Source: an uncultured Chloroflexia bacterium
GTDB lineage: Bacteria > Chloroflexota > Anaerolineae > Caldilineales > Caldilineaceae
Assembly (NCBI GenBank): GCA_963791135.1
Contig: CAWBRX010000001.1
Coordinates: 5,463 to 69,462 of the forward strand
DNA length: 64,000 nt
Reading direction: 5' to 3'
The notes below the pieces were generated by a model. The model was given only the letters and a program-made list of their open reading frames with translations, ran no database searches and had not been told where the DNA came from. Of the stretch, positions 10,350 to 42,089 are shown piece after piece (position 1 is the stretch's first letter; the number at the start of each line of letters is the position of its first letter). The translations under genes were made by a program, and so were the position numbers.

Positions 10350-11612
10350 ATGCCCGGCGAAGTAAACCTGGCCTGTACGCTGAGCAAAGACGCTTTGCCC
10401 GTGACCGGCCAGCCGCAGCTCACCTATGTGCTGCTCGAGGTCGCGCCCACCGATGTGATGGCGGCAGTGCAGATGCCGCTCAACTTCTGCCTGGTCCTGG
10501 ACAAGAGCGGCTCGATGGACGGGGCCAAAATGGACTGTCTCAAGGATGCCGTCAGGCGCGTGATTGACTTGCTTGGGCCGGATGATTATCTCTCGCTCGT
10601 GTCGTTTGATACGAGCCCCCACACCGTGGTCAAGAGCCAGCAGGCACGCAGCAGTTCGGATAAGCAGGCACTCAAGCGTCAGGTCGATCGGCTGGATGCA
10701 GGCGGAGGGACGGAGATTGCGCCGGCGTTGGAAAGCGGGTTTGCGGAGTTGAGCAAGGCTTTTGCGGCCAATCGCATCAACCGCCTGGTGCTGTTGACCG
10801 ACGGGCAGACGGAACACGAGGATCGCTGCCGCAAGCAAGCTCAGAAAATCGGCAGCAGCGGGATCCCGATCACCGCCCTCGGCATCGGCGCCGACTGGAA
10901 TGAGAAGCTGCTCCTGGAATTGGCGGGCGCTACAGGCGGACAGGCGGACTATATCGCCGGCCCGCAAGATATTGTGCCCTACTTCCAGTCCGCCGTGCAG
11001 TCGATGCAGTCGGCGGTTGTGCAGAACGCCGAACTCGTGCTGCGCCTGGTCGGCGGCATCAACCCGCGCAAGGTGTGGCGTGTGGTGCCCGCCATCACGG
11101 ACCTCGGCTATCGCCCCATTAGCGACCGCGTGATTGCAGCTCCGCTGGGCGAGTTGGAAAAGGGCCAGGGGCAGGCGCTGCTGATCGAACTGATGCTGCC
11201 CGATCGCCAGGCGGGCACCTACCGCATCGCGCAGGCCGAGGTCAGCTATGACGTGCCGCTGCTGCAGCTAGTCCAGGAAAAGGTGCGTGTTGACGTCATG
11301 CTCAACTTCACGCACGATTCATTTGCGGCGCAGCAGGTCAATCCAAAGGTCATGAACATCGTCGAAAAGGTTACGGCGTTCAAGCTGCAGACGCGCGCGC
11401 TGCAGGCGGCAGAAGCCGGTGATCTCGCTGGCGCAACGCAGCAGTTGCGTGCTGCCCATACGATTTTGCTCAACCAGGGCGACGCAGAACTGGCGCGTAC
11501 GGTTAAGCTGGCCGCCGATCAACTTGAGGGCCAAAACCAGATCAGTTCCGAGGCCAAAAAAACCATCCAGTTTAAGAGCGGCAAGACCGTACGGCTGGAC
11601 CAGCAACCCTGA
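10350..11612 (+). CDS. Cytoplasmic von Willebrand factor type A (vWA) domain protein
   Basis: Intact 420 aa. MIDAS motif LVLDKSGSMDG, then SLVSFDT and LLTDGQ. Followed by a beta-rich region and a helical tail. No signal peptide. Confidence 0.85.
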   Translation: MPGEVNLACTLSKDALPVTGQPQLTYVLLEVAPTDVMAAVQMPLNFCLVLDKSGSMDGAKMDCLKDAVRRVIDLLGPDDYLSLVSFDTSPHTVVKSQQARSSSDKQALKRQVDRLDAGGGTEIAPALESGFAELSKAFAANRINRLVLLTDGQTEHEDRCRKQAQKIGSSGIPITALGIGADWNEKLLLELAGATGGQADYIAGPQDIVPYFQSAVQSMQSAVVQNAELVLRLVGGINPRKVWRVVPAITDLGYRPISDRVIAAPLGELEKGQGQALLIELMLPDRQAGTYRIAQAEVSYDVPLLQLVQEKVRVDVMLNFTHDSFAAQQVNPKVMNIVEKVTAFKLQTRALQAAEAGDLAGATQQLRAAHTILLNQGDAELARTVKLAADQLEGQNQISSEAKKTIQFKSGKTVRLDQQP

Positions 11613-11625
11613 TGGTTGAAGCACG

Positions 11626-13233
11626 ATGATCTGTTCACGCTGCGGCAACGCAAATAAACCGAACGCGCGATTCTGTGCTCGCTGCGGTCAGCCGTTGACG
11701 GCAGGAGCGCCGCCTGCTGGCGTTCAACCGCCGGGGTCTCGCCCTCCCCAGTTGACCGGAATGCTGCCGGCCAATACCGTGCTCGCCGGCCGCTACTACG
11801 TGCAAAAACGCCTGGGACAAGGTGGTATGGCGGCCGTGTACAAGGCGGAAGACGCTCGGCTGCCCGGCACGTACTGGGCTGTCAAGGAGATGTCCGAGGC
11901 CGCGCTGGCGAATCCTGCCGAACGCGTGCAGGCAATCGAGGGCTTTCGCCACGAGGCGCGCGAACTGGCATCCTTGAGCCATCCGAACATTGTACGCGTC
12001 ATCGACTTCTTCGCCGATGCCGGCAAGTACTATCTCGTGATGGAGTACGTGGATGGTTCCACGCTCGAGGATCTGCTTGTGCACAACGGCAGCGCCTTCC
12101 AGGAAGCCCAGGTGCTGGCGTGGCTGCGCCAGCTCTGTGACGCCTTGCACTATCTGCACAGCCAGACTCCGCCGATCATCTTTCGCGACTTGAAACCCAG
12201 CAACATCATGGTCGATCGCAACGGCACGATCAAGCTGATCGACTTTGGCATCGCCCGGCGCTTTGATCCCAGGAAACCGACCGACACGACTGCCCTGGGC
12301 ACAGAGGGGTATGCCGCTCCGGAACAATATGGAAAGGGACAGACCGACGCCCGCTCTGACATCTATGCGCTCGGCGTGACGACACATCGTCTCTTGACAG
12401 GCTTTGATCCATCTACACGTCCCTTCAGCATCCCGGCAGTGCGCACCCTCAACCCGCAAGTGTCGCCGCGCCTGGCGGAGGTAGTCGATGCCTGCGTGCG
12501 ATCCGAAGTTACGCAGCGACCACAGCGCGTGGCCGACATCCAGCGCAGCGTAACCGGCATGCTGCCGTCGCCTCAATCCGGCAGCGGTGCTTTTTCTTCG
12601 CCACGCGGCGGTCTGCCCGCCGTGCAGACATCGACGCGCCCGACCACGCGGCTCATTCAAGCGGCTGCACGTTTGAGCGGCCGCCAGCTCGCGACTATCA
12701 TCGGCGGCAGCCTGGCCGGCCTGGTGCTGGCGATCTGGTTGTTTGCCCCCTGGATCGAAGCGAACTTCCCAGCCCTATGGTATGAGGTGCCCGCCTTCAT
12801 GATCGCGGGGCCGCTTGCGTACGCCGCCACGCGACGCCTGGGACCGGCTTTTGTCGCTCAGCTAGCCGTTACTGTCGTCGTCTTTGTAACATCGTGGATG
12901 CGCTTTGGCACGTGGACCTATGAGCCAAGGGGGTTCCTGCTGGGCGCCATCCTCAGCGCAGTTGTCTACGAAATCAGCTTTTTTCTGCTTGACCACCAAA
13001 CAACCTGGTCCCAACTGCCCGATGCATGGAAGCGCGAGATCGCTTGGTATGCGGCTACAGCTGTGCTGGCGACTGCTTGCTTTTACCTGCCCTGGTATCC
13101 CGTGCGCTTCCAGGGCTCACTGTGGGTATGGTTCAACACGGCCTTGATCGGTGCTGCCGGTTGGTTCTTGGGCGATCTTGTCCATCAGGGGATGGCGCAG
13201 CGGCTGTGGCTCCGCTTTGCGCATACGCCTTGA
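11626..13233 (+). CDS. Hanks-type Ser/Thr protein kinase with N-terminal zinc ribbon and C-terminal polytopic membrane domain
   Basis: Intact 535 aa. CSRCGNANKPNARFCARCG; GQGGMAAVYKA; WAVKEM; IIFRDLKPSNIMV; DFGIAR; GTEGYAAPEQ. Several predicted TM helices after about aa 360. Starts 13 nt after the vWA stop. Confidence 0.9.
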   Translation: MICSRCGNANKPNARFCARCGQPLTAGAPPAGVQPPGSRPPQLTGMLPANTVLAGRYYVQKRLGQGGMAAVYKAEDARLPGTYWAVKEMSEAALANPAERVQAIEGFRHEARELASLSHPNIVRVIDFFADAGKYYLVMEYVDGSTLEDLLVHNGSAFQEAQVLAWLRQLCDALHYLHSQTPPIIFRDLKPSNIMVDRNGTIKLIDFGIARRFDPRKPTDTTALGTEGYAAPEQYGKGQTDARSDIYALGVTTHRLLTGFDPSTRPFSIPAVRTLNPQVSPRLAEVVDACVRSEVTQRPQRVADIQRSVTGMLPSPQSGSGAFSSPRGGLPAVQTSTRPTTRLIQAAARLSGRQLATIIGGSLAGLVLAIWLFAPWIEANFPALWYEVPAFMIAGPLAYAATRRLGPAFVAQLAVTVVVFVTSWMRFGTWTYEPRGFLLGAILSAVVYEISFFLLDHQTTWSQLPDAWKREIAWYAATAVLATACFYLPWYPVRFQGSLWVWFNTALIGAAGWFLGDLVHQGMAQRLWLRFAHTP

Positions 13234-13297
13234 TACCCGGCCGAGCGGTGCACGCCAGATGCAATGCTGCCGATGAAGCTAAAATGGGAGGAGACGC

Positions 13298-14245
13298 ATG
13301 GGATTGGCTTGGCCTATAGCTCTGCTGGGGCTTCTGCTGGGGATCATTGCCGTGCTGTTTGTCGTGCTCATCGTTCTATTGGTGCGCAACTATCTGCGTG
13401 ACCGTTCGCGGATGCCTACAGCCCTGCGTAAGGCACAGGGGACAGCTGCAGATAACGAGGCTGCGTCCCCTGCGCCTCCGCCTGTTGCGGCTGCCCCTGC
13501 ACCTACGCAGGCTCCGGCACCTGCCCAACCACTCGCGCCGGCGCCAGCCGGCTCGCCACGCCCGGCGGCATACCTGGAGCAGGATACGAACGGCGGGCCG
13601 CCGCAGATTTTCCGGCTTGACCGGCCCGTAACCGTTATAGGCCGCGATCCTGCTTGTGACATTCGCATCGACGAGCGCTTTGTCTCAGTCTCGCGCCGGC
13701 ATGCCCAGATTGCCCGTGAGGACGATACTTATGTGCTCAGCGACCTGGGCTCAGGCAGCGGTGTCTACGTCAACGGTGCGCGCATCGGGCGCAACCGCGT
13801 ACGTGATGGTGCGGTTATCCGGATCGGACAGGATGTACAGTACACATTCCACGTGAATCCCACCGCGAGGCTTGCCATGACTGTATGTGCCAAGTGCCAG
13901 GCCGAAAACCATCCCAGCGCCAAGTACTGCCGCACCTGCGGTGCTGCGCTGCCGCAGCCTGGCAATTCGCCCCTTGCAGGTGTCGTGCGAGCGCCGGCGC
14001 CAACCCAGGCGCTGCCCGCTGTGGGCAAGTTCTCTCCCCTGGCCGACAGCGAACTGCTGCAAGACGACCGCTATGAGATCGTCCGCCTGGTCACCGGGGC
14101 GACAGCCGCAACGCATATATCGTGCGCGACCAAGGGTGTACACAGTGCGGCCGAGTACGACCGCAAGGAAGGGAAGTTCTGCGAAGCCTGTGGTGCCCAA
14201 CTGGGCCGGCTCTTTGTGCTGCTCGAAGGGAGCAACTGCCGGTGA
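13298..14245 (+). CDS. Membrane-anchored FHA-domain protein with zinc ribbons (probably the N-terminal part of one FHA-pseudokinase-PP2C protein)
   Basis: TM LGLLLGIIAVLFVVLIVLLV and a Pro/Ala linker. FHA: VTVIGRDPACDIRIDERFVSVSRRHAQI...YVLSDLGSGSGVYVNG. Zinc ribbon CAKCQAENHPSAKYCRTCG. Then RYEIVRLV... with local frame damage. Confidence 0.8.
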   Translation: MGLAWPIALLGLLLGIIAVLFVVLIVLLVRNYLRDRSRMPTALRKAQGTAADNEAASPAPPPVAAAPAPTQAPAPAQPLAPAPAGSPRPAAYLEQDTNGGPPQIFRLDRPVTVIGRDPACDIRIDERFVSVSRRHAQIAREDDTYVLSDLGSGSGVYVNGARIGRNRVRDGAVIRIGQDVQYTFHVNPTARLAMTVCAKCQAENHPSAKYCRTCGAALPQPGNSPLAGVVRAPAPTQALPAVGKFSPLADSELLQDDRYEIVRLVTGATAATHISCATKGVHSAAEYDRKEGKFCEACGAQLGRLFVLLEGSNCR

Positions 14246-15551
14246 GCTGGCCGCGGAGCGCCGGCTGGCACAGAGCGGAGTAAGCCATGCCAACCTGGTC
14301 AACTACCACACGGCATTCGAGGCTGCGCCCGTTGGCTCCGTTACGCGCAGCTACGCGGTAGCGGAGCCGATCCTGGCGGGCGTCCGGGCACCGGGACTGC
14401 TGGCGGCTCAACGGCTGTGCGAACAACTGCCTGCTGCCGCTGACACGGCTGTGGGCTGGATCGAGGCCATCCGGCCGGCTGCTGAGGCACTGCTGGCGGC
14501 CAACCTCTGGCTGCCCAAAATTGAGCCGGCCCAATTGCTGCTTGTGGAGGGCGTGGTGCGCCTGGATGCGGCGTCCACAGTGCAGCCGTACGAGGCTGCC
14601 CAGCGCAGCGCGATCAGGTCACAGCAGCAGCTGGCATTGGGGAAACTGCTGCAGCAGCTGGCGCCAGGCGCACAGCTGTCCGGTACGCCTGTAAAGACGC
14701 TGCCGCTGCCCACTCCGGCCGGCCCGGTTTCCCTATCCGTGCGTACAGGCGCCTTAACCGATCTCGGCAACGTACGCGAGATCAACGAAGACAGCATTGT
14801 AACGCTGGAAGTTGACCTGGTGCATAACTCGGCAAGCCAACCGCTGCGCTTGTACGCAGTCGCGGACGGCATGGGAGGGCATGCCGCAGGCGAAGTAGCG
14901 AGCATGTGTGCGACGAACGAACTCACAAATGCGCTGATGAAGAAACGCAGCGCCGCCATTGCCGGTGGCACCAGTGCTGGCAGTGTTGATCTGCGCCTGC
15001 TGCTTAAGGAGGCAGGCCTGAGTGCCGCGAAGGCCGTCTACGAGCAGGCGCAGCGCATGCGCACCGACATGGGCACCACGTTGGTTGCGGCACTGGTCGA
15101 CGCCAAATCGGCGAAGGCGTATGTGATCAATGTGGGCGACAGCCGACTCTACAAGATTTGCAGCCAGTCTATCCGGCAGGTGACGAAAGATCATTCGATG
15201 GTGCAGCTGCTGATCGATAAGCAGCAGTTGACGCCCGACGAGGCGCGCCATCATCCCAATGCGAACCTGATCTACCGCACGCTTGGCGACAAGCCCCAGG
15301 TGGAAATTGACCTGTTTGAAGAGTCGCTGGTGCCCGGCGATGCTCTGTTGTTGTGTAGTGACGGCTTGAGCGGCTTGGTTGAAGACCGGGAACTGCAGGC
15401 AGCCGTCGAGGAAGAGCCGACTCCCGAAGGTGCGTGCCGGCGGTTGGTGGCGCTGGCTAAGCAGCGCGGCGGGCATGACAACATTACCGTTATCGTCGTA
15501 CGGTTCAGCGCTGCGCCATCGAACGGTATGGCGAATGCGGGTGGCCTATGA
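14246..15551 (+). CDS. PP2C-family Ser/Thr phosphatase preceded by a degenerate kinase-like region (continuation of 13298..14245 in the next frame)
   Basis: Meaningful part of track ORF 13887..15551. HANLVNYHTAFE...LWLPKIEPAQLLLVEGVVRLD (kinase-like). PP2C motifs REINEDS, YAVADGMGGHAAGEVAS, INVGDSRLY, LLLCSDGL and GGHDNITVIVV. Confidence 0.85.
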
Positions 15552-16285
15552 ATGAGCAGCGCTATGCGATCCGTCACATAGAACCATTGTCGGCATTCAA
15601 GTTCGGTTTGGTCGTAGGCGGGATGGTGATGCTGCTGCCCGGCTGTGCCCTGGGCATCCTGGTGAAGGATCTTGTAGATCTGCTTGTAGAGATGGCGAAC
15701 GCCGTTATGTTTGCCCCTGATCTTGGTCCCATCGCGCAACTGCACCAGATGGGTTGGGGCCTGGTTTGGCTGGTTATGGTGGGGAGTGTGATCTTTGGCG
15801 GTATCAGCGGCGCGCTGGCTGCCGTGTTGAGTGCTGTGCTCTACAACTTGGTGACAGGCGTCAGCGGTGGGATCGTCGTTCATGCTGCCGTGCTCAATGC
15901 TGCAGCGGCGGGTCCAGCCCTGGCTTACACTCCGGCAGCACTGCCCCCGCCACCATTAACACTATCGCCGGCACCAGCGCCAGCCGCCAAGAGCTATGGC
16001 GGCCCGGCGCTGGTAGCCGTGGGTGGCAGTAGTGATGTCTGGCCGCTGCATGGCGCCGTCACGATTGTGGGCAGCGCGCCGTCCTGCAACATCCAAGTGG
16101 CCGGCCTTGCTACGCTGCATGCCGAAGTGCGCCTCGAAAACGGCCGCTATGTGATCTATGACATGAGCGGCGGGCAGACCTGGGTCAACGACCGCCAGGT
16201 CACGACTGCCAATATGCTCAAGGACGGTTTCCGCGTCCGGCTCGGCGGCGAGGACTTCCTGTTCCAGGCGCCGGCCGGCCCATGA
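15548..16285 (+). CDS. Membrane protein with C-terminal FHA domain
   Basis: ATG overlaps the PP2C stop (ATGA at 15548-15551). Two or three TM helices. FHA: VTIVGSAPSCNIQVAGLATLHAEVRLENGRYVIYDMSGGQTWVNDRQV. Confidence 0.8.
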   Translation: MNEQRYAIRHIEPLSAFKFGLVVGGMVMLLPGCALGILVKDLVDLLVEMANAVMFAPDLGPIAQLHQMGWGLVWLVMVGSVIFGGISGALAAVLSAVLYNLVTGVSGGIVVHAAVLNAAAAGPALAYTPAALPPPPLTLSPAPAPAAKSYGGPALVAVGGSSDVWPLHGAVTIVGSAPSCNIQVAGLATLHAEVRLENGRYVIYDMSGGQTWVNDRQVTTANMLKDGFRVRLGGEDFLFQAPAGP

Positions 16286-16291
16286 GGAAGG

Positions 16292-16390
16292 TTAGCGCAC
16301 AATGTTGGGGCGGCTCATGGATACGCCGACGATCATGCCGAAAATGAAAGAGATCAGCATCCCGATCGCGAGAATGGCTTCGTAACTCAT
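16292..16390 (-). CDS. Small hydrophobic peptide (32 aa), not in the ORF track
   Basis: Minus strand: GGAG-N8-ATG, then MSYEAILAIGMLISFIFGMIVGVSMSRPNIVR*. One TM helix. Its stop is 6 nt from the convergent FHA-gene stop. Confidence 0.4.
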   Translation of the reverse strand: MSYEAILAIGMLISFIFGMIVGVSMSRPNIVR

Positions 16391-16581
16391 AGTTTTTCTC
16401 CTTGCGCGACCTGCGCATTCGGTGAATAGACTGGCAACGGGTCATGACCGTACGGACAACGTTGCTGAAGGTACAGAGGATTGCGGCACTAAAAATCTTT
16501 CGTGTGGAGGAAAACTGATGGATGAGAACTGGCATAATCCCGAGGCGAGGTTAGAGGCAGCGGACGCAATTTCTAGTAGCG

Positions 16582-17007
16582 GTGGAGGTAGCTCGGAGTC
16601 GCGTTTGGCAGCGTGCGCCGGAAGGTGAAACATTTCGCTACTACGATACGAAACTTGGCGGTGAGGTTCGCACGACGTTGGATCGCGCAGATGCACTAGA
16701 GCCGGAAGCGGTGGCATATCTACACAGCCGCGACGGCACGGTACGTGAAATCGGCAGGCTGCGCTATGCGCTTGACTTGGAGGATTGCAACTTGCGTGGT
16801 TATACCCACGCACCTGAAACGTATGGCATTGAATCTGCCTTGCAGTCAGAAGTGTCAGCGCACGCTCGAGAAGCGCACATCGACAAGATGCGTGTTTGGG
16901 TGCCAGACGGAGATGCAGACGCAGCAAAGACCTGGTCTTCGCATGGATTTATCGAAGGAACGCGTGATCCTGGCGCCAGCGGCACGTTTTGGAACCGGCG
17001 TCTCTAG
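16582..17007 (+). CDS. Hypothetical protein, weakly GNAT-acetyltransferase-like
   Basis: Track ORF. THAPETYGIESALQSEVSAHAREAHIDKMRVWVPDGDADAAKTWSSHGF resembles GNAT motifs A/B. The true start may be ATG 16518 (GGAGGA RBS) in another frame. Sits in a locally lower-GC stretch. Confidence 0.3.
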   Translation: MEVARSRVWQRAPEGETFRYYDTKLGGEVRTTLDRADALEPEAVAYLHSRDGTVREIGRLRYALDLEDCNLRGYTHAPETYGIESALQSEVSAHAREAHIDKMRVWVPDGDADAAKTWSSHGFIEGTRDPGASGTFWNRRL

Positions 17008-17058
17008 ACATGCAGTGATCGCCGGTACGAATTCCATTTATTGACAAGGAGTAACGAG

Positions 17059-17652
17059 ATGGCCCCCGTTTCGCTGGTTATTGCTGCTGTCGGGTTAGTA
17101 CTGTTGTTTTTCGGCCGTAAGCTGTTCTGGGTCTACATCGCCATCAGCGGCTTTGTGCTTGGCACACAACTTGGCGCCTATCTGGGCAGTAATCTGGGTA
17201 CCCCAGCCATTGTCTTCATCGGCCTGGTCATGGGCGGTTTGTTCGGCGTCCTGGCTATCTATCTCCAGAAGCCGATGGCCTCGATTGCAGGTTTTTTGTT
17301 GGGCGGGACTCTTGTCCTGCTGCTCTTCCTCTATTTCGGCACCGGCGGCAACCTGTTTGCGCTGATGTTCTACCGCTATGGCGCAACCGATCTGGCCGTA
17401 TTCTTGATCGGCGGCCTGGGCTGCGCCGTACTTGTGTGGGTGACGTTTGAGTGGGCACTCATCATCATCTCGTCCGTGACCGGGTCTTTGATGGCTGTCG
17501 GCGGCCTCAGCCCGCTAGTCAGCCTGCCTGGGGCAGGGTACCTGCTGTTCTTCCTCGTATTGGCGGTGCTGGGCATGTTCGTCCAAGCGCGTATGTTGGC
17601 CAGGCCGGTGCCGGCCGCTGCCCCGCCGGCGCTGCCTGGTCAACATCCATAG
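17059..17652 (+). CDS. Polytopic membrane protein (DUF4203-like, tentative)
   Basis: AAGGAG 7 nt before ATG 17059. Five or six hydrophobic helices rich in Gly/Leu (FWVYIAISGFVLGTQLGAYLG...). Confidence 0.55.
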   Translation: MAPVSLVIAAVGLVLLFFGRKLFWVYIAISGFVLGTQLGAYLGSNLGTPAIVFIGLVMGGLFGVLAIYLQKPMASIAGFLLGGTLVLLLFLYFGTGGNLFALMFYRYGATDLAVFLIGGLGCAVLVWVTFEWALIIISSVTGSLMAVGGLSPLVSLPGAGYLLFFLVLAVLGMFVQARMLARPVPAAAPPALPGQHP

Positions 17653-17694
17653 CGCACAAGCCAAAAATGGTAACAGGGATGTACCTCTGCTGAC

Positions 17695-19626
17695 ATGATG
17701 CAACCTATGCCCCCACCTGCGTTATGCGTTTTCTGTGGTGCGCCGCTGCGGCGGCCGGACGCCCACTTCTGCGGCGCATGCGGTAAACAGCAGCCGGCTG
17801 CGCAGCCGGCACCAAAGTCGCCCAATGCTGGGATGCCAGGAGGAGCCGCCGGCGGCTCTGGATCACAGCCTGGCGCCCGGCCGCTGCCGGCAACTCAGTT
17901 TCTGCCGAGCGGTGGCGCAGGCGCAAGCCAGGCTCCATACCTGCTGGTGCACGAGCCCGGCGTGCCACCGCGCACCGTGCCGCTGCCCTCGCTTCCTATC
18001 GTACTGGGCAGCGTGGCGGCCGCCGGTGTTATGGCCCTCCCTCATCGTGCCGTAGCAGCACGCCACGTACGTATCGACCAGAACAGCGGCAGCTACTTCG
18101 TGACCGACCTAGGCTCGCCCAACGGCACAAGCCTCAACGGCCAACGCCTGGCGGCACAGGCGGGGCACCGGCTGGCCGACGGCGATATCCTGCGGATTGC
18201 CGATGCCCAGGGCAATTCAATCGGAATTGTCTTTCGCAGTGGCGCTGCGGCCGCCGTAGCTACGAGCGTCAAGATCGGTAAGCTGAACCTGGGCGGGAAA
18301 ACCGGCGCCGCCACGCTTGGCCGCGATCCTTCGAACACCGTGCCGCTAGACCATCCTACGGTCTCGCGCCTGCACGCCGAGGTGCGGCGCAGCGCCCAGG
18401 GCGATATGCTCTTTGACCACAGCAGCAACGGTACGTTCGTAAACGGCCAGCGCGTGCGCGGGCAGCATCTGCTCCACGCCGGCGATGTGGTACAAATTGG
18501 GCCGTTTCGGCTCACCTACGACCAGGCTGCATTTACCCAGATTGCCGCTACAAGCTCGTACCGCGTTGATGCCCTGCATTTGACGCGCCAGGTAACCATC
18601 GGCAGGAGGCTGCCGGCGCTCAAGGCGTCCACATCGCCCGCCCAGGCTGCCCGGCTGATCCTAAACGATGTCTGCCTCTCGATCTACCCGCGCGAGTTTG
18701 TGGCGCTGGTAGGCGGCAGCGGCGCCGGCAAGAGCACCCTGATGAAGGCGTTGAGCGGCGTGACACCCGCCAGCGGTCAAGTGCTCGTCAACGGGGAAGA
18801 CCTCTATGCCAACTTTGCCGCTTACCGCAGCATTCTGGGCTATGTGCCGCAGGACGATATCGTGCACCAGCATCTTACCGTCACGGGCGCCCTGGACTAT
18901 GCCGCACGGCTGCGCCTGCCCGACGCGACCCCGGCCGAGATCAAGGCCCGTATCGACGACGTGCTGGGCCAGGTGGAGCTGAAGCAGCACGCTGCCAAGG
19001 TTGTGCATCAGCTGAGCGGCGGCCAACGCAAGCGTGTCTCGATCGCCGTCGAACTACTGGCCGACCCGGGGCTGTTCTTCCTGGACGAGCCGACGTCAGG
19101 CCTGGATCCGGGACTGGAGAAGAAAATGATGCATACCCTGCGCCGTCTTGCGGATGCAGGGCGCACGATTATTCTGGTAACTCACGCTACCGCCAACATT
19201 GACCAGTGCGACCATGTGGCCTTCATGGCGGATGGTAAACTGGCCTTTTACGGGCCTCCCAAAGAAGCGCTCAATTTCTTTAACGCGCATGACTTTGCCG
19301 ACATTTATTCGCGGTTGAACTACCCAATTGACCCGGTTCAGAACCCCGCACCGCCCCAGTGGCAGCCGCCGTTGGCCGGTAACCAGATCCCTGCGGCGGG
19401 CACACCCCCGGCGATCCCGGCGACCCCCTCCGCCGCCCAGGTATGGTCGCAATGTTATCGCTTATCCCCCTACTATCACCAGTACGTGGAACAGCGCTTG
19501 CAGGCGCTGCCCGGCCCTGCCGCCCCTGCCTGCCGCCCCTGCCGCGGGCACGACGCGTCAGAAAGACTCCCCATGGCGGCAGTGGAGCGTGCTGACACAG
19601 CGCTACCTGGACCTGATTCGCCGTGA
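17695..19626 (+). CDS. Zinc-ribbon + two FHA domains + ABC ATPase (N-terminal part of an Rv1747-like FHA-gated ABC exporter)
   Basis: CVFCGAPLRRPDAHFCGACG. FHA1: IVLGS...ARHVRIDQNSGSYFVTDLGSPNGTSLNG. FHA2: ATLGRDPSNTVPLDHPTVSRLHAEV...FDHSSNGTFVNG. Walker A GGSGAGKST, signature LSGGQRKR, Walker B LFFLDEPTSGLD. The correct frame ends about 19529. Confidence 0.85.
   Translation: MMQPMPPPALCVFCGAPLRRPDAHFCGACGKQQPAAQPAPKSPNAGMPGGAAGGSGSQPGARPLPATQFLPSGGAGASQAPYLLVHEPGVPPRTVPLPSLPIVLGSVAAAGVMALPHRAVAARHVRIDQNSGSYFVTDLGSPNGTSLNGQRLAAQAGHRLADGDILRIADAQGNSIGIVFRSGAAAAVATSVKIGKLNLGGKTGAATLGRDPSNTVPLDHPTVSRLHAEVRRSAQGDMLFDHSSNGTFVNGQRVRGQHLLHAGDVVQIGPFRLTYDQAAFTQIAATSSYRVDALHLTRQVTIGRRLPALKASTSPAQAARLILNDVCLSIYPREFVALVGGSGAGKSTLMKALSGVTPASGQVLVNGEDLYANFAAYRSILGYVPQDDIVHQHLTVTGALDYAARLRLPDATPAEIKARIDDVLGQVELKQHAAKVVHQLSGGQRKRVSIAVELLADPGLFFLDEPTSGLDPGLEKKMMHTLRRLADAGRTIILVTHATANIDQCDHVAFMADGKLAFYGPPKEALNFFNAHDFADIYSRLNYPIDPVQNPAPPQWQPPLAGNQIPAAGTPPAIPATPSAAQVWSQCYRLSPYYHQYVEQRLQALPGPAAPACRPCRGHDASERLPMAAVERADTALPGPDSP
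19517..19542 (+). repeat. Perfect 13-bp direct tandem duplication (CTGCCGCCCCTGC x2) at the ATPase/permease frame break
   Basis: 19517-19529 is identical to 19530-19542. Deleting one copy gives ...QALPGPAAPAAGTTRQKDSPWRQWSVLTQRYLDL..., joining ORFs 17695..19626 and 19328..20563. Confidence 0.9.
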
Positions 19627-20563
19627 TGGGGTGAGCCTGGTCATTCTGCTGGCCGTCATGCCCCTGATCGGTTTCCTGCTGCTGATCATGGCTAACCGCT
19701 ACGACATCACAGGTTCGCCCGCCCATGAGATCGCGGCCGAAGTTCAACAGAAGATAGATACTGCCTGGCTCAACGAGGACGACCCAACTAACGACAACGA
19801 CCAGTTTGACGGCACGTACCAGGTAGCCGGCGCAGCGCAAACTTTGCTCTTCATGTTGGCGCTGGCCGCCAATCTTCTTGGTGTGTTTGGGGCATCCTAT
19901 GAGATCGTGAAGGAAGACGCGATCTATCGCCGCGAGCGCATGGTAAACCTGTCACTTGCGCCATACCTGTTGTCAAAGACCGCGGTGCTGGCCGCCTTTG
20001 CCGCCATCCAGTGCGTTCTGCTGCTGTGGGTCGTGCAGCGCAAGGTGGAGTACCCGCAAGACGGAGTGCTGCTGGGTGCGTTCGGCGAAATGTACGTGAC
20101 CCTGCTGCTCGTATCGTTGGCCGGCATCACTCTCGGCCTGCTGCTGTCGGCAGTGGTGCGCAACCAGAATACGGTGATCTACCTGATGCTGTTGGTGCTG
20201 TTTGTGCAGATATTGTTTGCCGGAGCGATCTTCAAGCTGCCCGGCGCTGCCGCCCCCATCTCCTATCTCACGCCAACGCGCTGGGCGCTTGAAGCCCTGG
20301 GGAGCACCGTGGACATGAACCGCCTCAACGCCCTCAGCGTGACCTGCGTGGAGCCTGAAAACGAGCAGCAGCGAACGCTGATCGAAAAGAGTTCACCGCC
20401 CTGCGACGAAGGCCAGCAGAAGCTGTCGCCGGTGCTCGACTTCAACGTCAACTATGAGCATGAGACAGGTCATCTGCTTATTCGCTGGGGCGTGCTGCTG
20501 CTGCTCTCGGCTGCCTTCGTTGGTATAACATTCTACGTCCAGAAACGCAAGGATATCATGTGA
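19543..20563 (+). CDS. ABC-2-type permease domain (C-terminal part of the FHA-gated ABC exporter)
   Basis: Meaningful part of track ORF 19328..20563. WRQWSVLTQRYLDLIRRDGVSLVILLAVMPLIGFLL..., six predicted TM helices and a large loop between TM1 and TM2. Confidence 0.8.
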
Positions 20564-23109
20564 GTGCCGGTACAACCCTTCGCCGTGAACAGATCGGACG
20601 GCTGCTGGAAGAGCTGGAGCAGCGGCAGCGTGACCATATGGCCCCCAGTGGACCGCCGTTCTGGGGGCCGCAGGTCCAGTCGCAGTCCTACTGGCAGGTG
20701 CTGGCGCTGGCTCGCTTCTGGGAACGCCCCGCAGCCCAGCCGCAGGGAGAGGAACTGGACTACGCCCAGCATATGGCAGACCTGCTGACCGGCAGCCATG
20801 CCCCTAGCCGCACCGTCCGCTACCTGGTGACCAGCACAGGCCAGGACGTGGGCGTCTACCTGGCACTGCAAGATGAAACTGCCCCTGCCGACCGGGTTCT
20901 GCCGGCACTGCTGCAAGGCACGTTTCCCGGTATCGAACTCGCTGCCAAGCCTGCCGCCAACCTGGGTAAAGATCTGTATGCGCAAGGCGTGTTCACGCAT
21001 GCGGGCATGCTCACCGGCATTCCAACCCTAAAGCTGCGCGCAAACCCTCAAGAAGGGCGCGCAGCGATGCAGCAGATCGAGCGCGTGCTGCGCGGTCTCT
21101 CCGGCAGCAATTGGGGATACTTAGTGGTCGCCGCTGCGGTGCCACAGCCGCGCACGTTGGACCTGGCGCAGCAGGCGATGCAGCGTGTAACCCAAGTATC
21201 TGCGCTTGTGCATGAGCAGACCAGCCGCCAGGGCGGCCGGCCTGAACTGGTAGACAACCAGGTGCAGACCGTGACACGTACGGCCGACCAGACCCACTAC
21301 GATGCGAAGACGTGCTTGGAACTGCTGGAAAAGAACCTGGATCGCCTCCAGATCGCCCGTGCCGAAGGGCTCTGGCAGGTGCAGGTCTACTATTTTGCCG
21401 CGGAGGCCCTTGTGCAAGCACAATTGGGATCCTTGCTGCGCGGCATATTTGCAGGTCCTGACTCTTCGCCCGAACCGATGCGGACCGTTGCGCGGCAGAC
21501 CGACCCCAACGCGGCGGATCGTGATGCAGAGCTGCAGACACTGCTCAATACGCGCGAATTGGCTGCCCTCATGCAGCTGCCGCGCGAGGAGTTTCCCTCC
21601 TATGCATTGCGTGACTATGTGCGCTTCGACAGTGACCTGCCCAAGCCGCAGCCCGTCGATGGTATCGAGTTAGGGCAGGTGCTTGACGGCGGGCGGCCCC
21701 TGGGCCACAGCTACTGCGTGGAGCGCCGCGACTTTACCAAGCATGGGCTGATAGCCGGTGTCACGGGCAGCGGCAAGACGACGACTGTCTTTAGCCTCCT
21801 CGACCAGATCTACCAGCAGGGCAAGGGAACTCCGTTCCTGGTCATCGAACCGGCCAAGACGGAATATCGCGCCTTGCTGCAAGCGGCAGCGCAGTTCCCA
21901 AACTTGCGTATTTACACGTTGGGCGATGAACGCTGTGCGCCGTTCAGGCTCAACCCTTTTGCCTTCGCAATCGGCGACGCCCAGCACCGCATCCATGTGC
22001 AGACCCATATCGATTTCCTCAAGGCCGTTTTCAACGCCGCCTTTGTGCTTTATGCGCCGATGCCGTATGTTCTGGAGACCTGCCTGCATGAGATCTACAT
22101 AGACAAGGGCTGGGATCTGGCCAGCTCTGTGAACCAGCGTCTGCCCTTTGCGCAGCAAGGTAGTGAGATGCTCTGGCCGGTTTTCCCGACCCTGGGCGAC
22201 CTGCACGCCAAGGTGGACGAAGTGGTGGATCGACTGGGGTATGAGGAGCGGATTGCCATGGATGTCAAGGCCGGCCTCAAGGCGCGCATTGGCAGCCTCC
22301 GTCTCGGCGGCAAGGGCTTTATGCTTGACTGCCGCCATTCGGTGCCCATGCACGAACTCGTCGCGTACCCGACTATCCTCGAAATGGCGTCGATCGGCAA
22401 CGAGGACGAAAAGGCGTTTGTGCTCGGCTTACTGCTCACTGCGCTTTATGAATACCTGATCGTGCGCCACCAGATCGCTGCCGCCGGTGGGGGACCGGCA
22501 ATGAAGGCGCGTGGGGGACTGGCACACTTGACGGTGCTGGAGGAGGCTCACCGCCTGCTTAAGAACGTCTCCACTGAGGTAAGCACCGAGAGCGCTAACA
22601 ACCGCGGCCAGGCGGTCGAGACATTTACCAATATGTTGTCGGAGATTCGCAGCTACGGCGAGGGCGTTCTGATTGCTGAGCAAATTCCTACCAAGCTGGC
22701 ACCCGACGCTATCAAGAATACGAACTTAAAAATCGTCCACCGTCTCCTTGCGGGCGACGATCGCGAGGTGTTAGCGGCGACGATGAACATGAGCGATGAG
22801 CAGAGCCGATTTCTAACGACATTGCGCGCCGGGCAGGCCGTCGTACACGCCGAGGGTGCCGATCATCCCTATTGCCTCGCCTTGCGTGACATCAAAACAC
22901 AAGTGAGTGGCCGGACCACCGACGCAGAAATCGCCCAGGCAATGGCCGGCATTGTTGCCCAGCCGCTGTACGAACCCACTCCGGAGTTTTCGCAGCACTT
23001 CCCAAAAGCTATCATGCAGGGGCAAGCACGGCCGGCAGCATCGCTGTCCACGGTCCGTACCCTGGCGCCTGGCGCTGGTCGACCAGGCTGGCTTCACAGA
23101 GCAGTTTGA
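20560..23109 (+). CDS. HerA/FtsK-superfamily (DUF87-type) P-loop ATPase with a long unassigned N-terminal region
   Basis: GTG 20560 overlaps the permease stop (GTGA). Walker A GLIAGVTGSGKTTTV, then FLVIEPAKTEYRAL. Walker B LTVLEEAHRLL. GEGVLIAEQIPTKLAPDAIKNTNLKIVHRL. The correct frame ends about 23068. Confidence 0.75.
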   Translation: MSAGTTLRREQIGRLLEELEQRQRDHMAPSGPPFWGPQVQSQSYWQVLALARFWERPAAQPQGEELDYAQHMADLLTGSHAPSRTVRYLVTSTGQDVGVYLALQDETAPADRVLPALLQGTFPGIELAAKPAANLGKDLYAQGVFTHAGMLTGIPTLKLRANPQEGRAAMQQIERVLRGLSGSNWGYLVVAAAVPQPRTLDLAQQAMQRVTQVSALVHEQTSRQGGRPELVDNQVQTVTRTADQTHYDAKTCLELLEKNLDRLQIARAEGLWQVQVYYFAAEALVQAQLGSLLRGIFAGPDSSPEPMRTVARQTDPNAADRDAELQTLLNTRELAALMQLPREEFPSYALRDYVRFDSDLPKPQPVDGIELGQVLDGGRPLGHSYCVERRDFTKHGLIAGVTGSGKTTTVFSLLDQIYQQGKGTPFLVIEPAKTEYRALLQAAAQFPNLRIYTLGDERCAPFRLNPFAFAIGDAQHRIHVQTHIDFLKAVFNAAFVLYAPMPYVLETCLHEIYIDKGWDLASSVNQRLPFAQQGSEMLWPVFPTLGDLHAKVDEVVDRLGYEERIAMDVKAGLKARIGSLRLGGKGFMLDCRHSVPMHELVAYPTILEMASIGNEDEKAFVLGLLLTALYEYLIVRHQIAAAGGGPAMKARGGLAHLTVLEEAHRLLKNVSTEVSTESANNRGQAVETFTNMLSEIRSYGEGVLIAEQIPTKLAPDAIKNTNLKIVHRLLAGDDREVLAATMNMSDEQSRFLTTLRAGQAVVHAEGADHPYCLALRDIKTQVSGRTTDAEIAQAMAGIVAQPLYEPTPEFSQHFPKAIMQGQARPAASLSTVRTLAPGAGRPGWLHRAV

Positions 23110-23782
23110 CCGGCTTGTTCTCAGCATCGTCGAGGCGCCCGAACGCACGGTTGTGAGTTTTGCCTGGCTGGCGCGCCAGGCACAGCAGAGTTGGATCGAG
23201 GATGCGGTTGCGATGCCTGTGGTGCTCTATGCTGTGCTCATTGCCGTGGAAGAGCACAGCACACGACGCGGCCAGCAGTATCGCTGGCCGTATCATCGCA
23301 TCGGCAACGCCTATGGACATTTGCGGCGCACGCTCTCTGAGACGGCGCGCAACTATCCGTATCACGTGACTGACCACCAGCAGCGCGACCATGCGCTGCG
23401 CCAGCTGGCGGCGGCGGTGCAGCCATCAGCTGCCCAGTTTCAAGCGGCATATGGCAAGCTGACCGCAACCCATGCGCCCTACGACTTATGCCACGCATGT
23501 GCGACCTGCTGCCGGTATCGATTTGAGGCAGCCAACATTGCGCAGCGATCCGACAGCCAGGCTGCTCTGCGCCACGCTTTCGAGACCAAGGATGATCAGG
23601 CTATGTGGAAGCAGTTGACAGACTACTGCAGGAACGCGGCTGCGCAGATCGCCCGTGGACCCGCCGGCCAACCGCCACGCGATGCATGTATTTGTGTGGC
23701 CGTGCACAGCGCTTTGGTTGCGCGGTTTAGTCCGGCCACCCAGACCAAAATGGTGCGCAATGTCGTGAACCTGCTGCCTTAG
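23076..23782 (+). CDS. C-terminal ~235-aa extension of the HerA-type ATPase (next frame), Cys-rich, no known domain
   Basis: Meaningful part of track ORF 22907..23782: LVDQAGFTEQFDRLVLSIVEAPERT...LCHACATCCRYRF...DACICVAVH. Joined to 20560..23109 by one +1 shift. Confidence 0.55.
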
Positions 23783-24678: not shown

Positions 24679-25058
24679 AGTTACCTCGGGAGATGATAAT
24701 TTGACACACGGAGTCGTGATGGTCGGCAATGCGCTGTCGGTGTAGGGGGGTAACGGCCGCCGTCACTATACTTTTCGCAAACAGCGTACATTGCGTTGGG
24801 CTTACAGTCAACTGACAAAATGCTGACAAACGGGGAGTTACTGACGAAATGAGAGGGTTTTGAGAGGAATCGGGATAGGTTTTACAGCGCGAAGTTGTTT
24901 TGGTTCCTGACGAATTGCCTGCGAAATCCAAGCTTGAGCTTACAGGGTGAGCGCCCAAGCTGCCCTTTTGAGAGGTGCTTCTCTACCCGATCGGCCACCG
25001 CGATTGCTGCCTTATTTCGCTGACCTATCTTGTTGATGAAGCGAACGTTGGGCTCTCC

Positions 25059-40405: not shown

Positions 40406-42089
<1,684 letters not shown>

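Follow-up and report, generated by a model that had tools for sequence, protein, structure and literature searches.

Our best explanation of the gene block at positions 10350 to 23782 of the 64-kb window (the whole stretch of DNA that was analysed) is a clade-specific juxtaposition of three separately recurring modules: a putative phosphothreonine switch, an Rv1747-type exporter and a VirB4-like ATPase. Together with the roles proposed for the modules below, we give this reading a probability of about one half. In this co-directional block of a Chloroflexota (Caldilineales-like) genome, one member of an uncharacterised family of VirB4-like (secretion-motor-like) ATPases stands beside a kinase/phosphatase/FHA/vWA switch of known type and an FHA-gated ABC exporter. 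The evidence lies in the domain content of the genes, their conservation and co-directional linkage, and similarity of fold, and comparison with about 170 related loci (given L numbers) showed that the modules are separable and do not form one obligate machine.

Gene content and integrity of the block

The genes, domains and junctions listed in an earlier sequence-only reading were confirmed by ORF calls and, with the corrections given below, by domain searches, and the gene order and operon-like spacing described there matched the ORFs found. Coordinates, strand, description and main evidence are as follows.

10350 to 11612, + strand: ArnB/4FX5-type tripartite vWA protein, 420 aa (Pfam VWA, 5.6e-20)
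11626 to 13233, + strand: zinc-ribbon Hanks Ser/Thr kinase with a polytopic C-terminal membrane tail (Pfam)
13298 to 15551, + strand: TM-FHA-zinc ribbon-pseudokinase (ribbon insert)-PP2C protein, one frameshift (Pfam, NCBIfam, tblastn, hhalign)
15548 to 16285, + strand: membrane protein with a DUF3566-like TM region and a C-terminal FHA domain (Pfam)
16582 to 17007, + strand: small conserved ORF (orthologue in L009)
17041 to 17652, + strand: TM7S3/TM198-like (formerly DUF4203) polytopic membrane protein (Pfam PF13886, 6.9e-5)
17695 to 20563, + strand: zinc ribbon-FHA-FHA-ABC ATPase-ABC-2 permease, Rv1747-type, one frameshift (Pfam)
20560 to 23782, + strand: VirB4/HerA-clade ATPase, ~1,073 aa when repaired, one frameshift
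23806 to 24729, - strand: Sigma-70 region-4 (HTH) protein, transcribed towards the ATPase gene (Pfam Sigma70_r4_2, 2.5e-9)

The vWA stop codon and the kinase ATG are separated by 13 nt. The PP2C and TM-FHA genes share an ATGA overlap (15548-15551) and the permease and ATPase genes a GTGA overlap (20560-20563), and the GTG start of the ATPase agrees with the N-termini of its homologues. Promoter and terminator scans gave results at chance level only.

The three long genes are each broken by one frameshift, at ~14203-14265 in the PP2C gene (the frame changes between these points when the L090 orthologue is used as tblastn query), ~19530-19553 in the ABC gene and ~23069-23100 in the ATPase gene. 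Intact orthologues of the latter two encode 927 aa and 1073 aa. These frameshifts, and the fragmentation of further genes in the window, would fit a decaying, non-functional locus in which three of the longest genes are pseudogenes. We consider such decay quite improbable, as identity to intact orthologues is undiminished past each frameshift (for the intact 927-aa ABC orthologue of L007, 74% before the frame switch and 84% after it) and all four invariant Cys are kept in the ATPase C-terminal domain. Single indels in otherwise conserved genes, moreover, are spread through the window, a pattern that assembly errors typically leave in a MAG contig (85 kb public record).

The putative phospho-switch cassette

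The vWA, zinc-ribbon Hanks kinase, FHA-pseudokinase-PP2C and TM-FHA genes form a recurrent Chloroflexota cassette. Among the 41 vWA-centred loci that are 8 kb or longer, a kinase was present in 27, FHA in 25, PP2C in 16 and all three in 15, usually in the order KIN-PP2C-VWA-FHA-KIN.

The vWA family (more than 1,797 homologues) gave a profile that matched PDB 4fx5 at 2.4e-23 (residues 48-384) and the ArnB paralogue VWA2 (5a8j) at 3e-13, and the protein is of the ArnB/4FX5 tripartite type. The MIDAS is intact, with D51, S53, S55, T121 and D151 invariant in the family, and the C-terminal region carries six family-invariant threonines (T348, T363, T371, T384, T405 and T413). One family member, in L088, lies alone among housekeeping genes.

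The kinase matched Pfam Pkinase (3e-49) and Zn_Ribbon_1 (1.3e-6), has a hydrophobic C-terminal tail and, as read from the translation, retains its catalytic motifs (AVKEM, FRDLKPSN, DFG and APE). In the PP2C protein, Pfam identified FHA (1.2e-18) and a Zn-ribbon (DZR) at 13298-14245 and PP2C at 13887-15551, the latter also matching NCBIfam Stp1-type PP2C at 1.9e-68. The degenerate kinase-like domain proposed earlier for this protein was undetected by Pfam and by the kinase HMM, but was recovered by hhalign when a profile of 3 orthologues was compared with 52 kinases (probability 96.8%, E 2.7e-10); L-P-K-I-E-P-A-Q stands where the catalytic loop HRDxKPxN is expected. Three of the four zinc ribbons attributed to the block are intact and in frame as CxxC...CxxC (11632, 13886 and 17725), whereas the fourth, an insert in the pseudokinase N-lobe that is intact in orthologues, is half-degraded here. 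The TM-FHA protein matched Pfam FHA (1.4e-8) and DUF3566 (3e-3). Inspection of the translations by eye showed that the second FHA domain of the ABC protein retains the full Arg/Ser/His/Asn set and that in the FHA domain of the PP2C protein the canonical Arg and Ser-x-x-His are preserved, with Ser replacing the usual Asn; the canonical Arg is missing from the TM-FHA domain and from the first ABC FHA.

The vWA+kinase+PP2C triad named in the sequence-only reading does appear in the literature as the ZnR-kinase + PP2C + vWA theme of Kaur et al. 2020 (PMC7159879, section 29). The cassette is a close analogue of GAP1-N2 systems (theme 3), of Deinococcus DRA0331-0334 and of archaeal ArnA/ArnB. [quoted passage not shown] By analogy with ArnA/ArnB, the kinase may phosphorylate threonines of the vWA C-terminal helical region and of linkers; FHA domains would read the phosphothreonine marks and PP2C would erase them, so that the kinase, FHA-pseudokinase-PP2C, membrane FHA and vWA proteins would make up a reversible switch.

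The exporter and the small genes before it

Pfam identified a Zn-ribbon, FHA (2 stretches, 4.6e-31) and ABC_tran (2.4e-30) at 17695-19626, and ABC2_membrane (2.6e-18) at 19328-20563. The analogy with Rv1747, a counterpart under PknF (PMC3138270), holds for this ZnR-FHA-FHA-ABC protein, and its N-terminal FHA pair would make it a client of the switch.

The region at 16.2-17.7 kb had been regarded as an interruption but is not foreign: in Caldilineales-like relatives, both the small ORF and the TM198-like gene reappear beside the ATPase. L008 and L009 carry orthologues of the TM198-like gene upstream of the ATPase, and the small ORF orthologue of L009 sits between the ABC and ATPase genes. A GNAT-like label for this ORF was not upheld, with no match in Pfam or NCBIfam and an hhalign E of 0.12 against neighbouring GNATs. 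The DUF4203-like assignment of the membrane protein did find its PF13886 match, although a weak one under the curated cut-off.

The ATPase family

The last gene of the block had been read as a giant HerA/DUF87-type ATPase. A Pfam DUF87/HerA match (2.4e-7, 20560-23109) agrees with this, and the P-loop motifs GVTGSGKTT and EEAHRL are present, but the N-terminal domain is VirB4-like and not classical HerA. TrwK/VirB4 gave the best PDB matches to the full structural model, which aligned to 4ag6, a VirB4 ATPase domain, with a TMt of 0.80. When the N-terminal domain was modelled alone (pLDDT 81.5), its only significant PDB matches were TrwK/VirB4 (E 5e-6 to 2e-4; next >6e-3), at a moderate TMq of 0.36-0.42. 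These models suggest that the protein is better described as VirB4-like than as HerA. Searches of Pfam and NCBIfam gave no VirB4 sequence model above cut-off, and further T4SS genes were not observed.

The C-terminal domain is helical and family-specific, with four invariant Cys; it was found in 490 representatives, solely at the C-terminus of its own family. The family has more than 2,277 homologues, about 1,030-1,090 aa in length, and spans 159 species of Chloroflexota and Melainabacteria. No description of it was found.

Neighbourhoods of the ATPase gene

The synteny of ATPase homologues with kinase and FHA genes on which the sequence-only reading had staked its claim is present in other genomes. 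Within 10 kb of the ATPase in related loci, 50/50 kinase domains and 27/29 FHA domains are on the ATPase strand. In Anaerolineae and relatives the gene is part of arrays in which zinc-ribbon kinases and FHA proteins are encoded in its own direction, and 13 of 19 Anaerolineae-type loci have a kinase within 10 kb (44 domains in 274 kb). The case for kinase enrichment is built on strand coherence, on adjacency and on how the clades differ: none of the 42 Melainabacteria loci has an FHA, PP2C or vWA neighbour or a kinase nearby, and in 9 Ktedonobacteria/Chloroflexia loci neither FHA nor PP2C was found, with vWA in one. PP2C and vWA genes near the ATPase are almost limited to the Caldilineales-like clade, where FHA was found near it in 5/5 loci and PP2C, vWA and ABC in 4/5 each despite rearrangement. 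The full combination is confined to this clade and its gene order varies there, PP2C and vWA lying on the opposite side of the ATPase gene in three relatives.

Chloroflexota genomes have many Hanks kinases, and such kinase- and FHA-rich genomes could place unrelated genes together by chance, as the solitary vWA gene of L088 might suggest. This explanation is disfavoured and seems very improbable given the strand counts, the immediate adjacency seen repeatedly across orders, linkage that survives rearrangement, and the fact that the block holds every FHA domain and the single kinase of the 64-kb window.

The block had also been interpreted as one obligate system, in which kinase/PP2C marks read by FHA modules gate an exporter mechanically coupled to the ATPase motor. 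The GTGA overlap, an adjacency repeated in L007, and the persistence of FHA, PP2C, vWA and ABC in 4-5 of 5 Caldilineales-like loci despite rearrangement speak for it. However, the overlap was seen in the window and L007 only; the ABC gene is 2-6 kb from the ATPase in L008 and L009, with other genes intervening, and in L025 it is encoded on the other strand. The ATPase was found in 0/41 vWA-centred loci, the Melainabacteria loci do without these partners, the Ktedonobacteria/Chloroflexia loci have neither FHA nor PP2C (vWA in one), and in L087 no ATPase accompanies the set of vWA, an adjoining DUF3566-FHA gene of TM-FHA architecture, ABC, ZnR-PP2C and kinase. We therefore regard a single coupled system as improbable.

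Proposed role of the ATPase

Under the three-module reading, the ATPase is probably docked at the membrane, where it would serve as a translocation or effector motor. This VirB4-like, hexameric-type enzyme would dock through zinc-ribbon membrane partners encoded just upstream, and in Anaerolineae and Caldilineales it may be under Ser/Thr-kinase/FHA control; we infer the kinase-substrate pairs, the physical contact between ATPase and partner and any translocated substrate. The gene upstream of the ATPase encodes a zinc ribbon in 12/21 Anaerolineae-type and 34/42 Melainabacteria loci. In 13 loci the gene of an unannotated ZnR-TM-beta protein precedes the ATPase gene and stops no more than 200 nt before it. 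Melainabacteria have as partner a ZnR-TM-coupling-protein-like ATPase, in which a TM segment and Walker A/B motifs are present and which matches TrwB/T4CP weakly. Elsewhere the partner would be one of these two proteins or a ZnR kinase, and in the window the ZnR-FHA-FHA-ABC protein. The window has no ZnR-TM-beta partner, so it is conjecture that the zinc ribbon of the ABC protein stands in for it.

A defence or programmed-death system, as in multicellular bacteria, is unlikely but deserves consideration; here a HerA-like ATPase scaffold or sensor would activate effectors, with kinase, PP2C, vWA and FHA as a GAP1-N2-type regulatory layer. HerA scaffolds are known from Sir2-HerA and DUF4297-HerA defence systems (PDB matches), and the ZnR-kinase + PP2C + vWA theme is among those of Kaur et al. 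(PMC7159879). GAP1-N2, GAP1-M and DO-GTPase2 genes immediately precede the ATPase gene in L001 and L038, CHAT proteases occur in L003 and L038, Endonuclease_NS_2 toxin and YezG-like immunity genes are next to the ATPase gene in L005 and L006, and FGE-sulfatase domains are found on neighbouring kinases and at 7613-8953 of the window. The CHAT, endonuclease-toxin and GAP1-N2/DO-GTPase genes fit the conflict and translocation readings equally. Against a conflict system, PADLOC HerA models matched the ATPase core only, and weakly (1.7e-14), NCBIfam antiphage HerA scored 30 bits versus a cut-off of 800, and the N-terminal domain is not a HerA barrel. GAP1-N2 or GTPase genes were not found at about 4.6-30.5 kb of the window, Kaur et al. 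do not list the ATPase in their systems, and Melainabacteria synteny is stable (SelA upstream in 15 loci), unlike that of variable defence islands.

The Sigma-70 region-4 gene directly follows the ATPase gene in 5/5 non-redundant Caldilineales-like loci (the window, L001, L007, L008 and L009), and its product is a conserved neighbour of the ATPase across this clade.

Gene content and reading frames of the block

The window has a G+C content of about 62%, and a run of same-strand ORFs occupied positions 10350-23782, exactly where the sequence-only reading had placed its genes. The 13-nt gap, the ATGA overlap and the GTGA overlap that it had described at the junctions were all found, and the genes were confirmed by profile-HMM domain assignment with Pfam, NCBIfam and PADLOC.

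Features of the block, with coordinates and strand
10350-11612 (+): vWA protein (Pfam, NCBIfam, PADLOC)
11626-13233 (+): zinc-ribbon Hanks kinase with a hydrophobic tail (Pfam, NCBIfam, PADLOC)
13298-14245 (+): TM-FHA-zinc-ribbon ORF, continued after a frame change by a PP2C phosphatase (13887-15551)
15548-16285 (+): DUF3566-like TM-FHA protein (Pfam, NCBIfam, PADLOC)
17041-17652 (+): TM7S3/TM198-like membrane protein (weak match, 6.9e-5)
17695-19626 (+): zinc-ribbon-FHA-FHA-ABC ATPase, continued after a frame change by an ABC-2 permease (19328-20563)
20560-23109 (+): DUF87/HerA-type ATPase, running on in another frame to 23782

Catalytic motifs read from the translations were intact in the kinase, the PP2C phosphatase, the ABC nucleotide-binding domain, the vWA MIDAS and the Walker A and B motifs of the ATPase. 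Each of the three long genes carries one frameshift, at 14203-14265 (PP2C), 19530-19553 (ABC) and 23069-23100 (ATPase). Pfam matches showed a penicillin-amidase gene (25059-27499, - strand) and an M14 carboxypeptidase gene (5282-7575, + strand) each lying in three ORFs, which suggests indel errors or gene decay across the whole window and bears on the frameshifts of the block. Identity to intact orthologues was as high downstream of each frameshift as upstream, and the exact 849-aa product is present in the NCBI/ENA record of the 85-kb contig. Because of this undiminished identity, the fragmentation of the other genes and the contig record, assembly indels are regarded as more likely than decay.

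The stretch at 16.2-17.7 kb had been taken for an interruption of the block, but both of its genes recur beside the ATPase in relatives. The ORF at 16582-17007, previously called GNAT-like, had no family match, and its hhalign comparison with the GNAT cluster of the neighbourhoods gave an E-value of 0.12; the label is therefore unsupported. Scans of tRNAs, promoters and terminators were uninformative, and PADLOC and PHROGs matched kinases or P-loop proteins only generically and assigned nothing to a defence system or a phage.

The vWA, kinase, PP2C and FHA genes

The vWA family (420 aa) is strongly conserved, with the DxSxS, T and D of the MIDAS invariant. Its profile matched PDB 4fx5 at 2.4e-23 over residues 48-384, nearly the full length, and the ArnB paralogue VWA2 (5a8j) at 3e-13. 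[quoted passage not shown] Six Thr residues are invariant in the last ~75 residues of the vWA family and ZnR-FHA genes (ZnR, zinc ribbon) adjoin the vWA genes in relatives, which is suggestive only of a putative phosphorylated bundle bound by a ZnF-FHA protein.

The degenerate kinase-like domain noted in the PP2C protein proved real, and was detectable by profile-profile comparison only (three orthologues against 52 true kinases, probability 96.8%, E 2.7e-10); its catalytic loop is replaced. A kinase HMM search of the window gave noise only at this domain, and single-sequence hhalign a weak match (probability 8.8%). An iterated pseudokinase profile was discarded for drift, as it pulled in every zinc-ribbon protein together with true kinases. 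The fourth zinc ribbon of the sequence-only reading is an insert in the pseudokinase N-lobe, intact in orthologues but half-lost in the window. By eye, the second FHA domain of the ABC protein has the full canonical set of phosphothreonine-binding residues, the FHA domain of the PP2C protein keeps the Arg and the Ser-x-x-His with Ser where Asn is usual, and the TM-FHA protein and the first ABC FHA domain are without the Arg.

Three described systems are close to these genes. The Sulfolobus module of ArnA/ArnB with ArnC/ArnD and a phosphatase, whose output is control of archaellum expression (PMC6509490), likewise has a tripartite vWA protein whose MIDAS is intact and whose C-terminal helical region bears Thr residues; zinc-ribbon/FHA readers, Hanks kinases and a phosphatase are encoded with it. 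That module is archaeal with PP2A, whereas the window module is bacterial with PP2C, and its FHA domains are fused to the pseudokinase-PP2C protein and to membrane proteins. By domain composition, the window also encodes together the four parts of DRA0331-DRA0334 of Deinococcus radiodurans, namely a vWA protein, an STPK, an FHA protein and an FHA-PP2C; the preprint describes a PP2C phosphatase with a fused FHA domain and experimental evidence of push-pull antagonism between kinase and phosphatase (bioRxiv 10.64898/2026.01.23.701218). Compared with these Deinococcus proteins, the window phosphatase is extended by zinc ribbons, a pseudokinase domain and a TM segment and the window kinase is membrane-anchored, and neither an ABC exporter nor a VirB4-like ATPase is reported for Deinococcus.

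The third system is the GAP1-N2 theme (theme 3) of Kaur et al. 2020. Its triad is identical, with a ZnR kinase that has TM helices, a PP2C that is active and a vWA protein that stands alone, but the theme was described as actinobacteria-restricted and GAP1-N2-linked (PMC7159879). No GAP1-N2 or GTPase gene was matched by Pfam among the window ORFs between 4.6 and 30.5 kb, and an ATPase of the present family is not mentioned by Kaur et al. (PMC7159879).

The vWA neighbourhoods were sampled at 41 loci centred on a vWA gene, each 8 kb or longer and together spanning 666 kb. Kinase genes occurred in 27 of them, FHA genes in 25, PP2C genes in 16 and all three in 15; an ABC gene was found in 3/41 and the ATPase gene in 0/41. 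One such locus (L087) holds vWA, DUF3566-FHA, ABC, ZnR-PP2C and kinase genes together without the ATPase, and another (L088) a vWA gene alone amid housekeeping genes. The phospho-module is thus a self-sufficient, widespread cassette of known kind. An ArnA/ArnB-like vWA-FHA-kinase-phosphatase switch, studied so far in archaea and Deinococcus, is a widespread Chloroflexota cassette, and the block suggests two clients for it, an Rv1747-like exporter and the ATPase.

The FHA-ABC exporter

The earlier analogy with M. tuberculosis Rv1747 was borne out by Pfam, which assigned two FHA stretches, ABC_tran and ABC2_membrane, forming one chain after repair at 19530-19553; a Caldilineales-like locus (L007) holds an intact 927-aa orthologue. 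As in Rv1747/PknF, two N-terminal FHA domains, the nucleotide-binding domain and the permease lie in one polypeptide (PMC3138270), and a Hanks kinase is encoded nearby, although in the window it lies ~4.5 kb upstream on the same strand and not adjacent to the exporter gene. The window exporter differs in its additional N-terminal zinc ribbon, in a first FHA domain without the canonical Arg/Ser, and in an inter-FHA linker of ~20 residues with few Thr, whereas that of Rv1747 is long and bears pT152/pT210 (PMC3138270). By analogy, the protein would be an Rv1747-type client of the phospho-switch. More ABC ATPase-like matches, unrelated to this gene, were seen at ~40494-41066 (+), 17-18 kb downstream of the ATPase.

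Family and predicted fold of the ATPase

More than 2,277 homologues of the ATPase were found, of ~1,030-1,090 aa, and the family was present in 159 species representatives, with members in Caldilineales, Anaerolineae, Thermoflexales, Herpetosiphonaceae, Ktedonobacteria and many Melainabacteria/Obscuribacterales. Sequence models detected the HerA-like core alone, far under curated cut-offs: NCBIfam HerA models scored 21-30 bits (cut-offs 800-970), and the PADLOC HerA model matched the core only. No Pfam VirB4-family model matched, and NCBIfam conju_CD1110 scored 17.7 bits against a cut-off of 325.

Structure prediction pointed to VirB4. The best matches of an AlphaFold model of P0003, an 82%-identical homologue (pLDDT 77), were to TrwK/VirB4 of the R388 type IV secretion system, with a TMt of 0.80 to the VirB4 ATPase domain 4ag6, ahead of HerA proteins. 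When the N-terminal 362 residues of the window ATPase were modelled alone (pLDDT 81.5, pTM 0.83), 14 TrwK/VirB4 chains were the only significant PDB matches (E 5e-6 to 2e-4, TMq ~0.4), and the next match exceeded 6e-3. The models thus predict a VirB4 fold, with a VirB4-type N-terminal domain and a C-terminal ATPase domain.

A helical domain made up of the ~240 C-terminal residues contains four invariant Cys (CxxCxxxC...C) and is confined to the C-terminus of this family (490 50%-identity representatives among 1.84 billion). These Cys, CxxCxxxC and one distal, lie within 23069-23779 of the window and residues 977-1045 of P0003, and may form a Zn or Fe-S site.

The protein shares with VirB4/TrwK the two-domain plan, in which the N-terminal domain resembles that of VirB4 alone and is followed by a P-loop ATPase domain. 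It differs in the added four-Cys helical domain and in a chromosomal family that in Chloroflexota is set in kinase/FHA arrays. No other type IV secretion genes (VirB3/6/8, coupling protein, relaxase, pilin) were found in the window or the examined Chloroflexota loci. With the HerA proteins of NurA-HerA, Sir2-HerA and DUF4297-HerA it has the same core, seen in Pfam DUF87 and in PDB and PADLOC HerA matches, but it is twice as long and its N-terminal domain is not a HerA barrel; Pfam found no NurA, Sir2 or DUF4297 partner among the window genes. The HerA-type label of the sequence-only reading therefore holds for the core, while the protein is not a classical HerA and its N-terminal domain is VirB4-like. 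The EssC/EccC ATPases of type VII secretion are FtsK/SpoIIIE proteins with several ATPase domains, and FHA domains are fused to them in Firmicutes; this identity was rejected for the window ATPase, which has a single P-loop domain and no FHA domain.

The VirB4-like N-terminal fold, the family-specific C-terminal domain and the HerA-like core therefore set the protein apart as a family of its own within the VirB4/HerA clade, built on a VirB4-like plan but not canonical VirB4 by sequence or gene context. No description of the family or of the full gene combination was found in the searchable literature, outside which lies the 2004 FtsK-HerA survey of Iyer et al. What is new is this uncharacterised VirB4-like ATPase family in an unusual context rich in phospho-signalling; the signalling and exporter modules are already known.

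Neighbourhoods of the ATPase

Gene neighbourhoods were scanned at 87 ATPase loci including the window; the HMMs used were made from domains of the window itself, and all called proteins were clustered. Counts by clade are from non-redundant ATPase loci with at least 4 kb of flank.

Loci with each gene type around the ATPase, by clade
Caldilineales-like, window included (5 loci): kinase 3, FHA 5, PP2C 4, vWA 4, ABC 4, Sigma-r4 5
Other Anaerolineae-type (19 loci): kinase 13 (44 domains/274 kb, about one per 6 kb), FHA 8, PP2C 1, vWA 4, ABC 2, Sigma-r4 0
Ktedonobacteria/Chloroflexia (9 loci): kinase 3, FHA 0, PP2C 0, vWA 1, ABC 1, Sigma-r4 0
Melainabacteria (42 loci, 667 kb of flank): kinase 0, FHA 0, PP2C 0, vWA 0, ABC 0, Sigma-r4 0

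All 50 of 50 kinase domains and 27 of 29 FHA domains were on the ATPase strand. Three Caldilineales-like relatives carry a PP2C-ZnR-vWA-ZnR/FHA-DA1-kinase set downstream of the ATPase, past a convergent sigma-r4 gene, and the window has the equivalents upstream. The phospho-switch, the exporter and the ATPase are joined in the Caldilineales-like clade only, in variable order, so the single integrated machine of the sequence-only reading is only partly supported.

The commonest partner in Chloroflexota is a small protein with a zinc ribbon as its sole Pfam annotation. Its plan (ZnR-TM-beta) is a zinc ribbon, a Pro-rich linker, one to three TM segments and a conserved beta-rich C-terminal domain with the motif ...VRYLRVxD...G(D/E)PSG...GD.V..WG.... 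(examples at L010 9146-9961, L014 2232-3089 and L038 9185-9934). Tandem paralogues are frequent, one typically immediately upstream of the ATPase. At 13 loci fewer than 200 nt separate the end of this gene from the ATPase gene downstream, and 24 loci have it within 10 kb; neither the window nor its nearest relatives contain it.

The upstream gene conserved in Melainabacteria (~1,284 aa) codes for a protein in which a zinc ribbon and a single TM segment accompany a P-loop domain. The P-loop domain matched a coupling-protein model weakly (TrwB_AAD_bind, 6.7e-5), a sequence search of the protein against the PDB gave no match, and a conserved ~190-aa gene follows the ATPase. This three-gene set recurs in L040-L086 (e.g. 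L053 6012-9866), where the partner has a long disordered region between zinc ribbon and TM segment and the Walker A motif GGSDQGKT; SelA lies upstream in 15 of these loci, which hold no kinase or FHA genes. The immediately upstream gene carries a zinc ribbon at 12/21 Anaerolineae-type and 34/42 Melainabacteria loci. The ATPase family is thus tied independently to zinc-ribbon membrane proteins everywhere, and to kinases and FHA proteins in the Anaerolineae-type lineages.

Possible roles of the ATPase

The small membrane-protein gene immediately upstream recalls type IV secretion systems, where virB3 precedes virB4, and the coupling-protein-like ATPase partner in Melainabacteria is a second likeness to them. 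Because of these two features and the VirB4-like plan, we favour a membrane-docked translocation or effector motor, which would be recruited through its zinc-ribbon partners.

Some ATPase loci also hold CHAT proteases. Directly upstream of the ATPase, L001 (619-5894, Caldilineales-like) and L038 (203-8342, Ktedonobacteraceae) have complete GAP1-N2/GAP1-M and DO-GTPase2 sets with DZR-FN3, and in L038 a CHAT protein follows the ATPase. An Endonuclease_NS_2 toxin gene followed by a YezG-like immunity gene lies directly after the ATPase in L005 (13250-14252) and, in L006 (6126-7065), on the ATPase strand ~3 kb upstream; the pairing is a hint of a role in delivering toxins or in conflict. With GAP1-N2, CHAT and toxin genes present at some loci, the membrane-docked motor, which the VirB4-like plan and the upstream partners favour, has a serious competitor in a HerA-like scaffold of a regulated conflict system.

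A bolder possibility, to which we give a probability of roughly one in five, is a VirB4-derived translocation apparatus for secretion or uptake. This would be an undescribed apparatus of Chloroflexota and Melainabacteria, defined by the ~1,070-aa ATPase and anchored by ZnR-TM-beta proteins or by a ZnR-TM-coupling-protein-like ATPase. Its control in filamentous Chloroflexota would fall to Ser/Thr-kinase/FHA/PP2C proteins, analogous to PpkA/PppA/Fha of type VI secretion, and in the clade of the window the apparatus would additionally be wired to the FHA-gated ABC exporter.

To our knowledge, every VirB4-family motor described so far belongs to type IV secretion/conjugation or a related DNA-transfer machine, and the secretion biology of Chloroflexota has been little studied. 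Vertical conservation of a VirB4-like ATPase across 159 species, with no other type IV secretion genes and amid Ser/Thr-kinase/FHA arrays, would point to a new envelope translocation system of Chloroflexota or, alternatively, to a new class of effectors for the regulated conflict systems of multicellular bacteria. The cultured Ktedonobacter racemifer DSM 44963 has both the ATPase and its ZnR-TM-beta partner, and the question is therefore open to experiment.

Genes flanking the block

Directly upstream of the vWA gene lies a 322-aa ORF (9271-10239, +) that had no Pfam or PHROGs match; its long N-terminus is of low complexity and rich in Pro/Thr/Ala, and its C-terminal region is rich in Trp/Gly. 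Just upstream of the block, at 7613-8953 (+), a 446-aa protein carries an FGE-sulfatase domain at its C-terminus (1.7e-43); the domain recurs among the conflict systems described by Kaur et al. (PMC7159879). This domain is fused to zinc-ribbon kinases in the ATPase loci L010 and L005, and the gene may be part of the block's neighbourhood.
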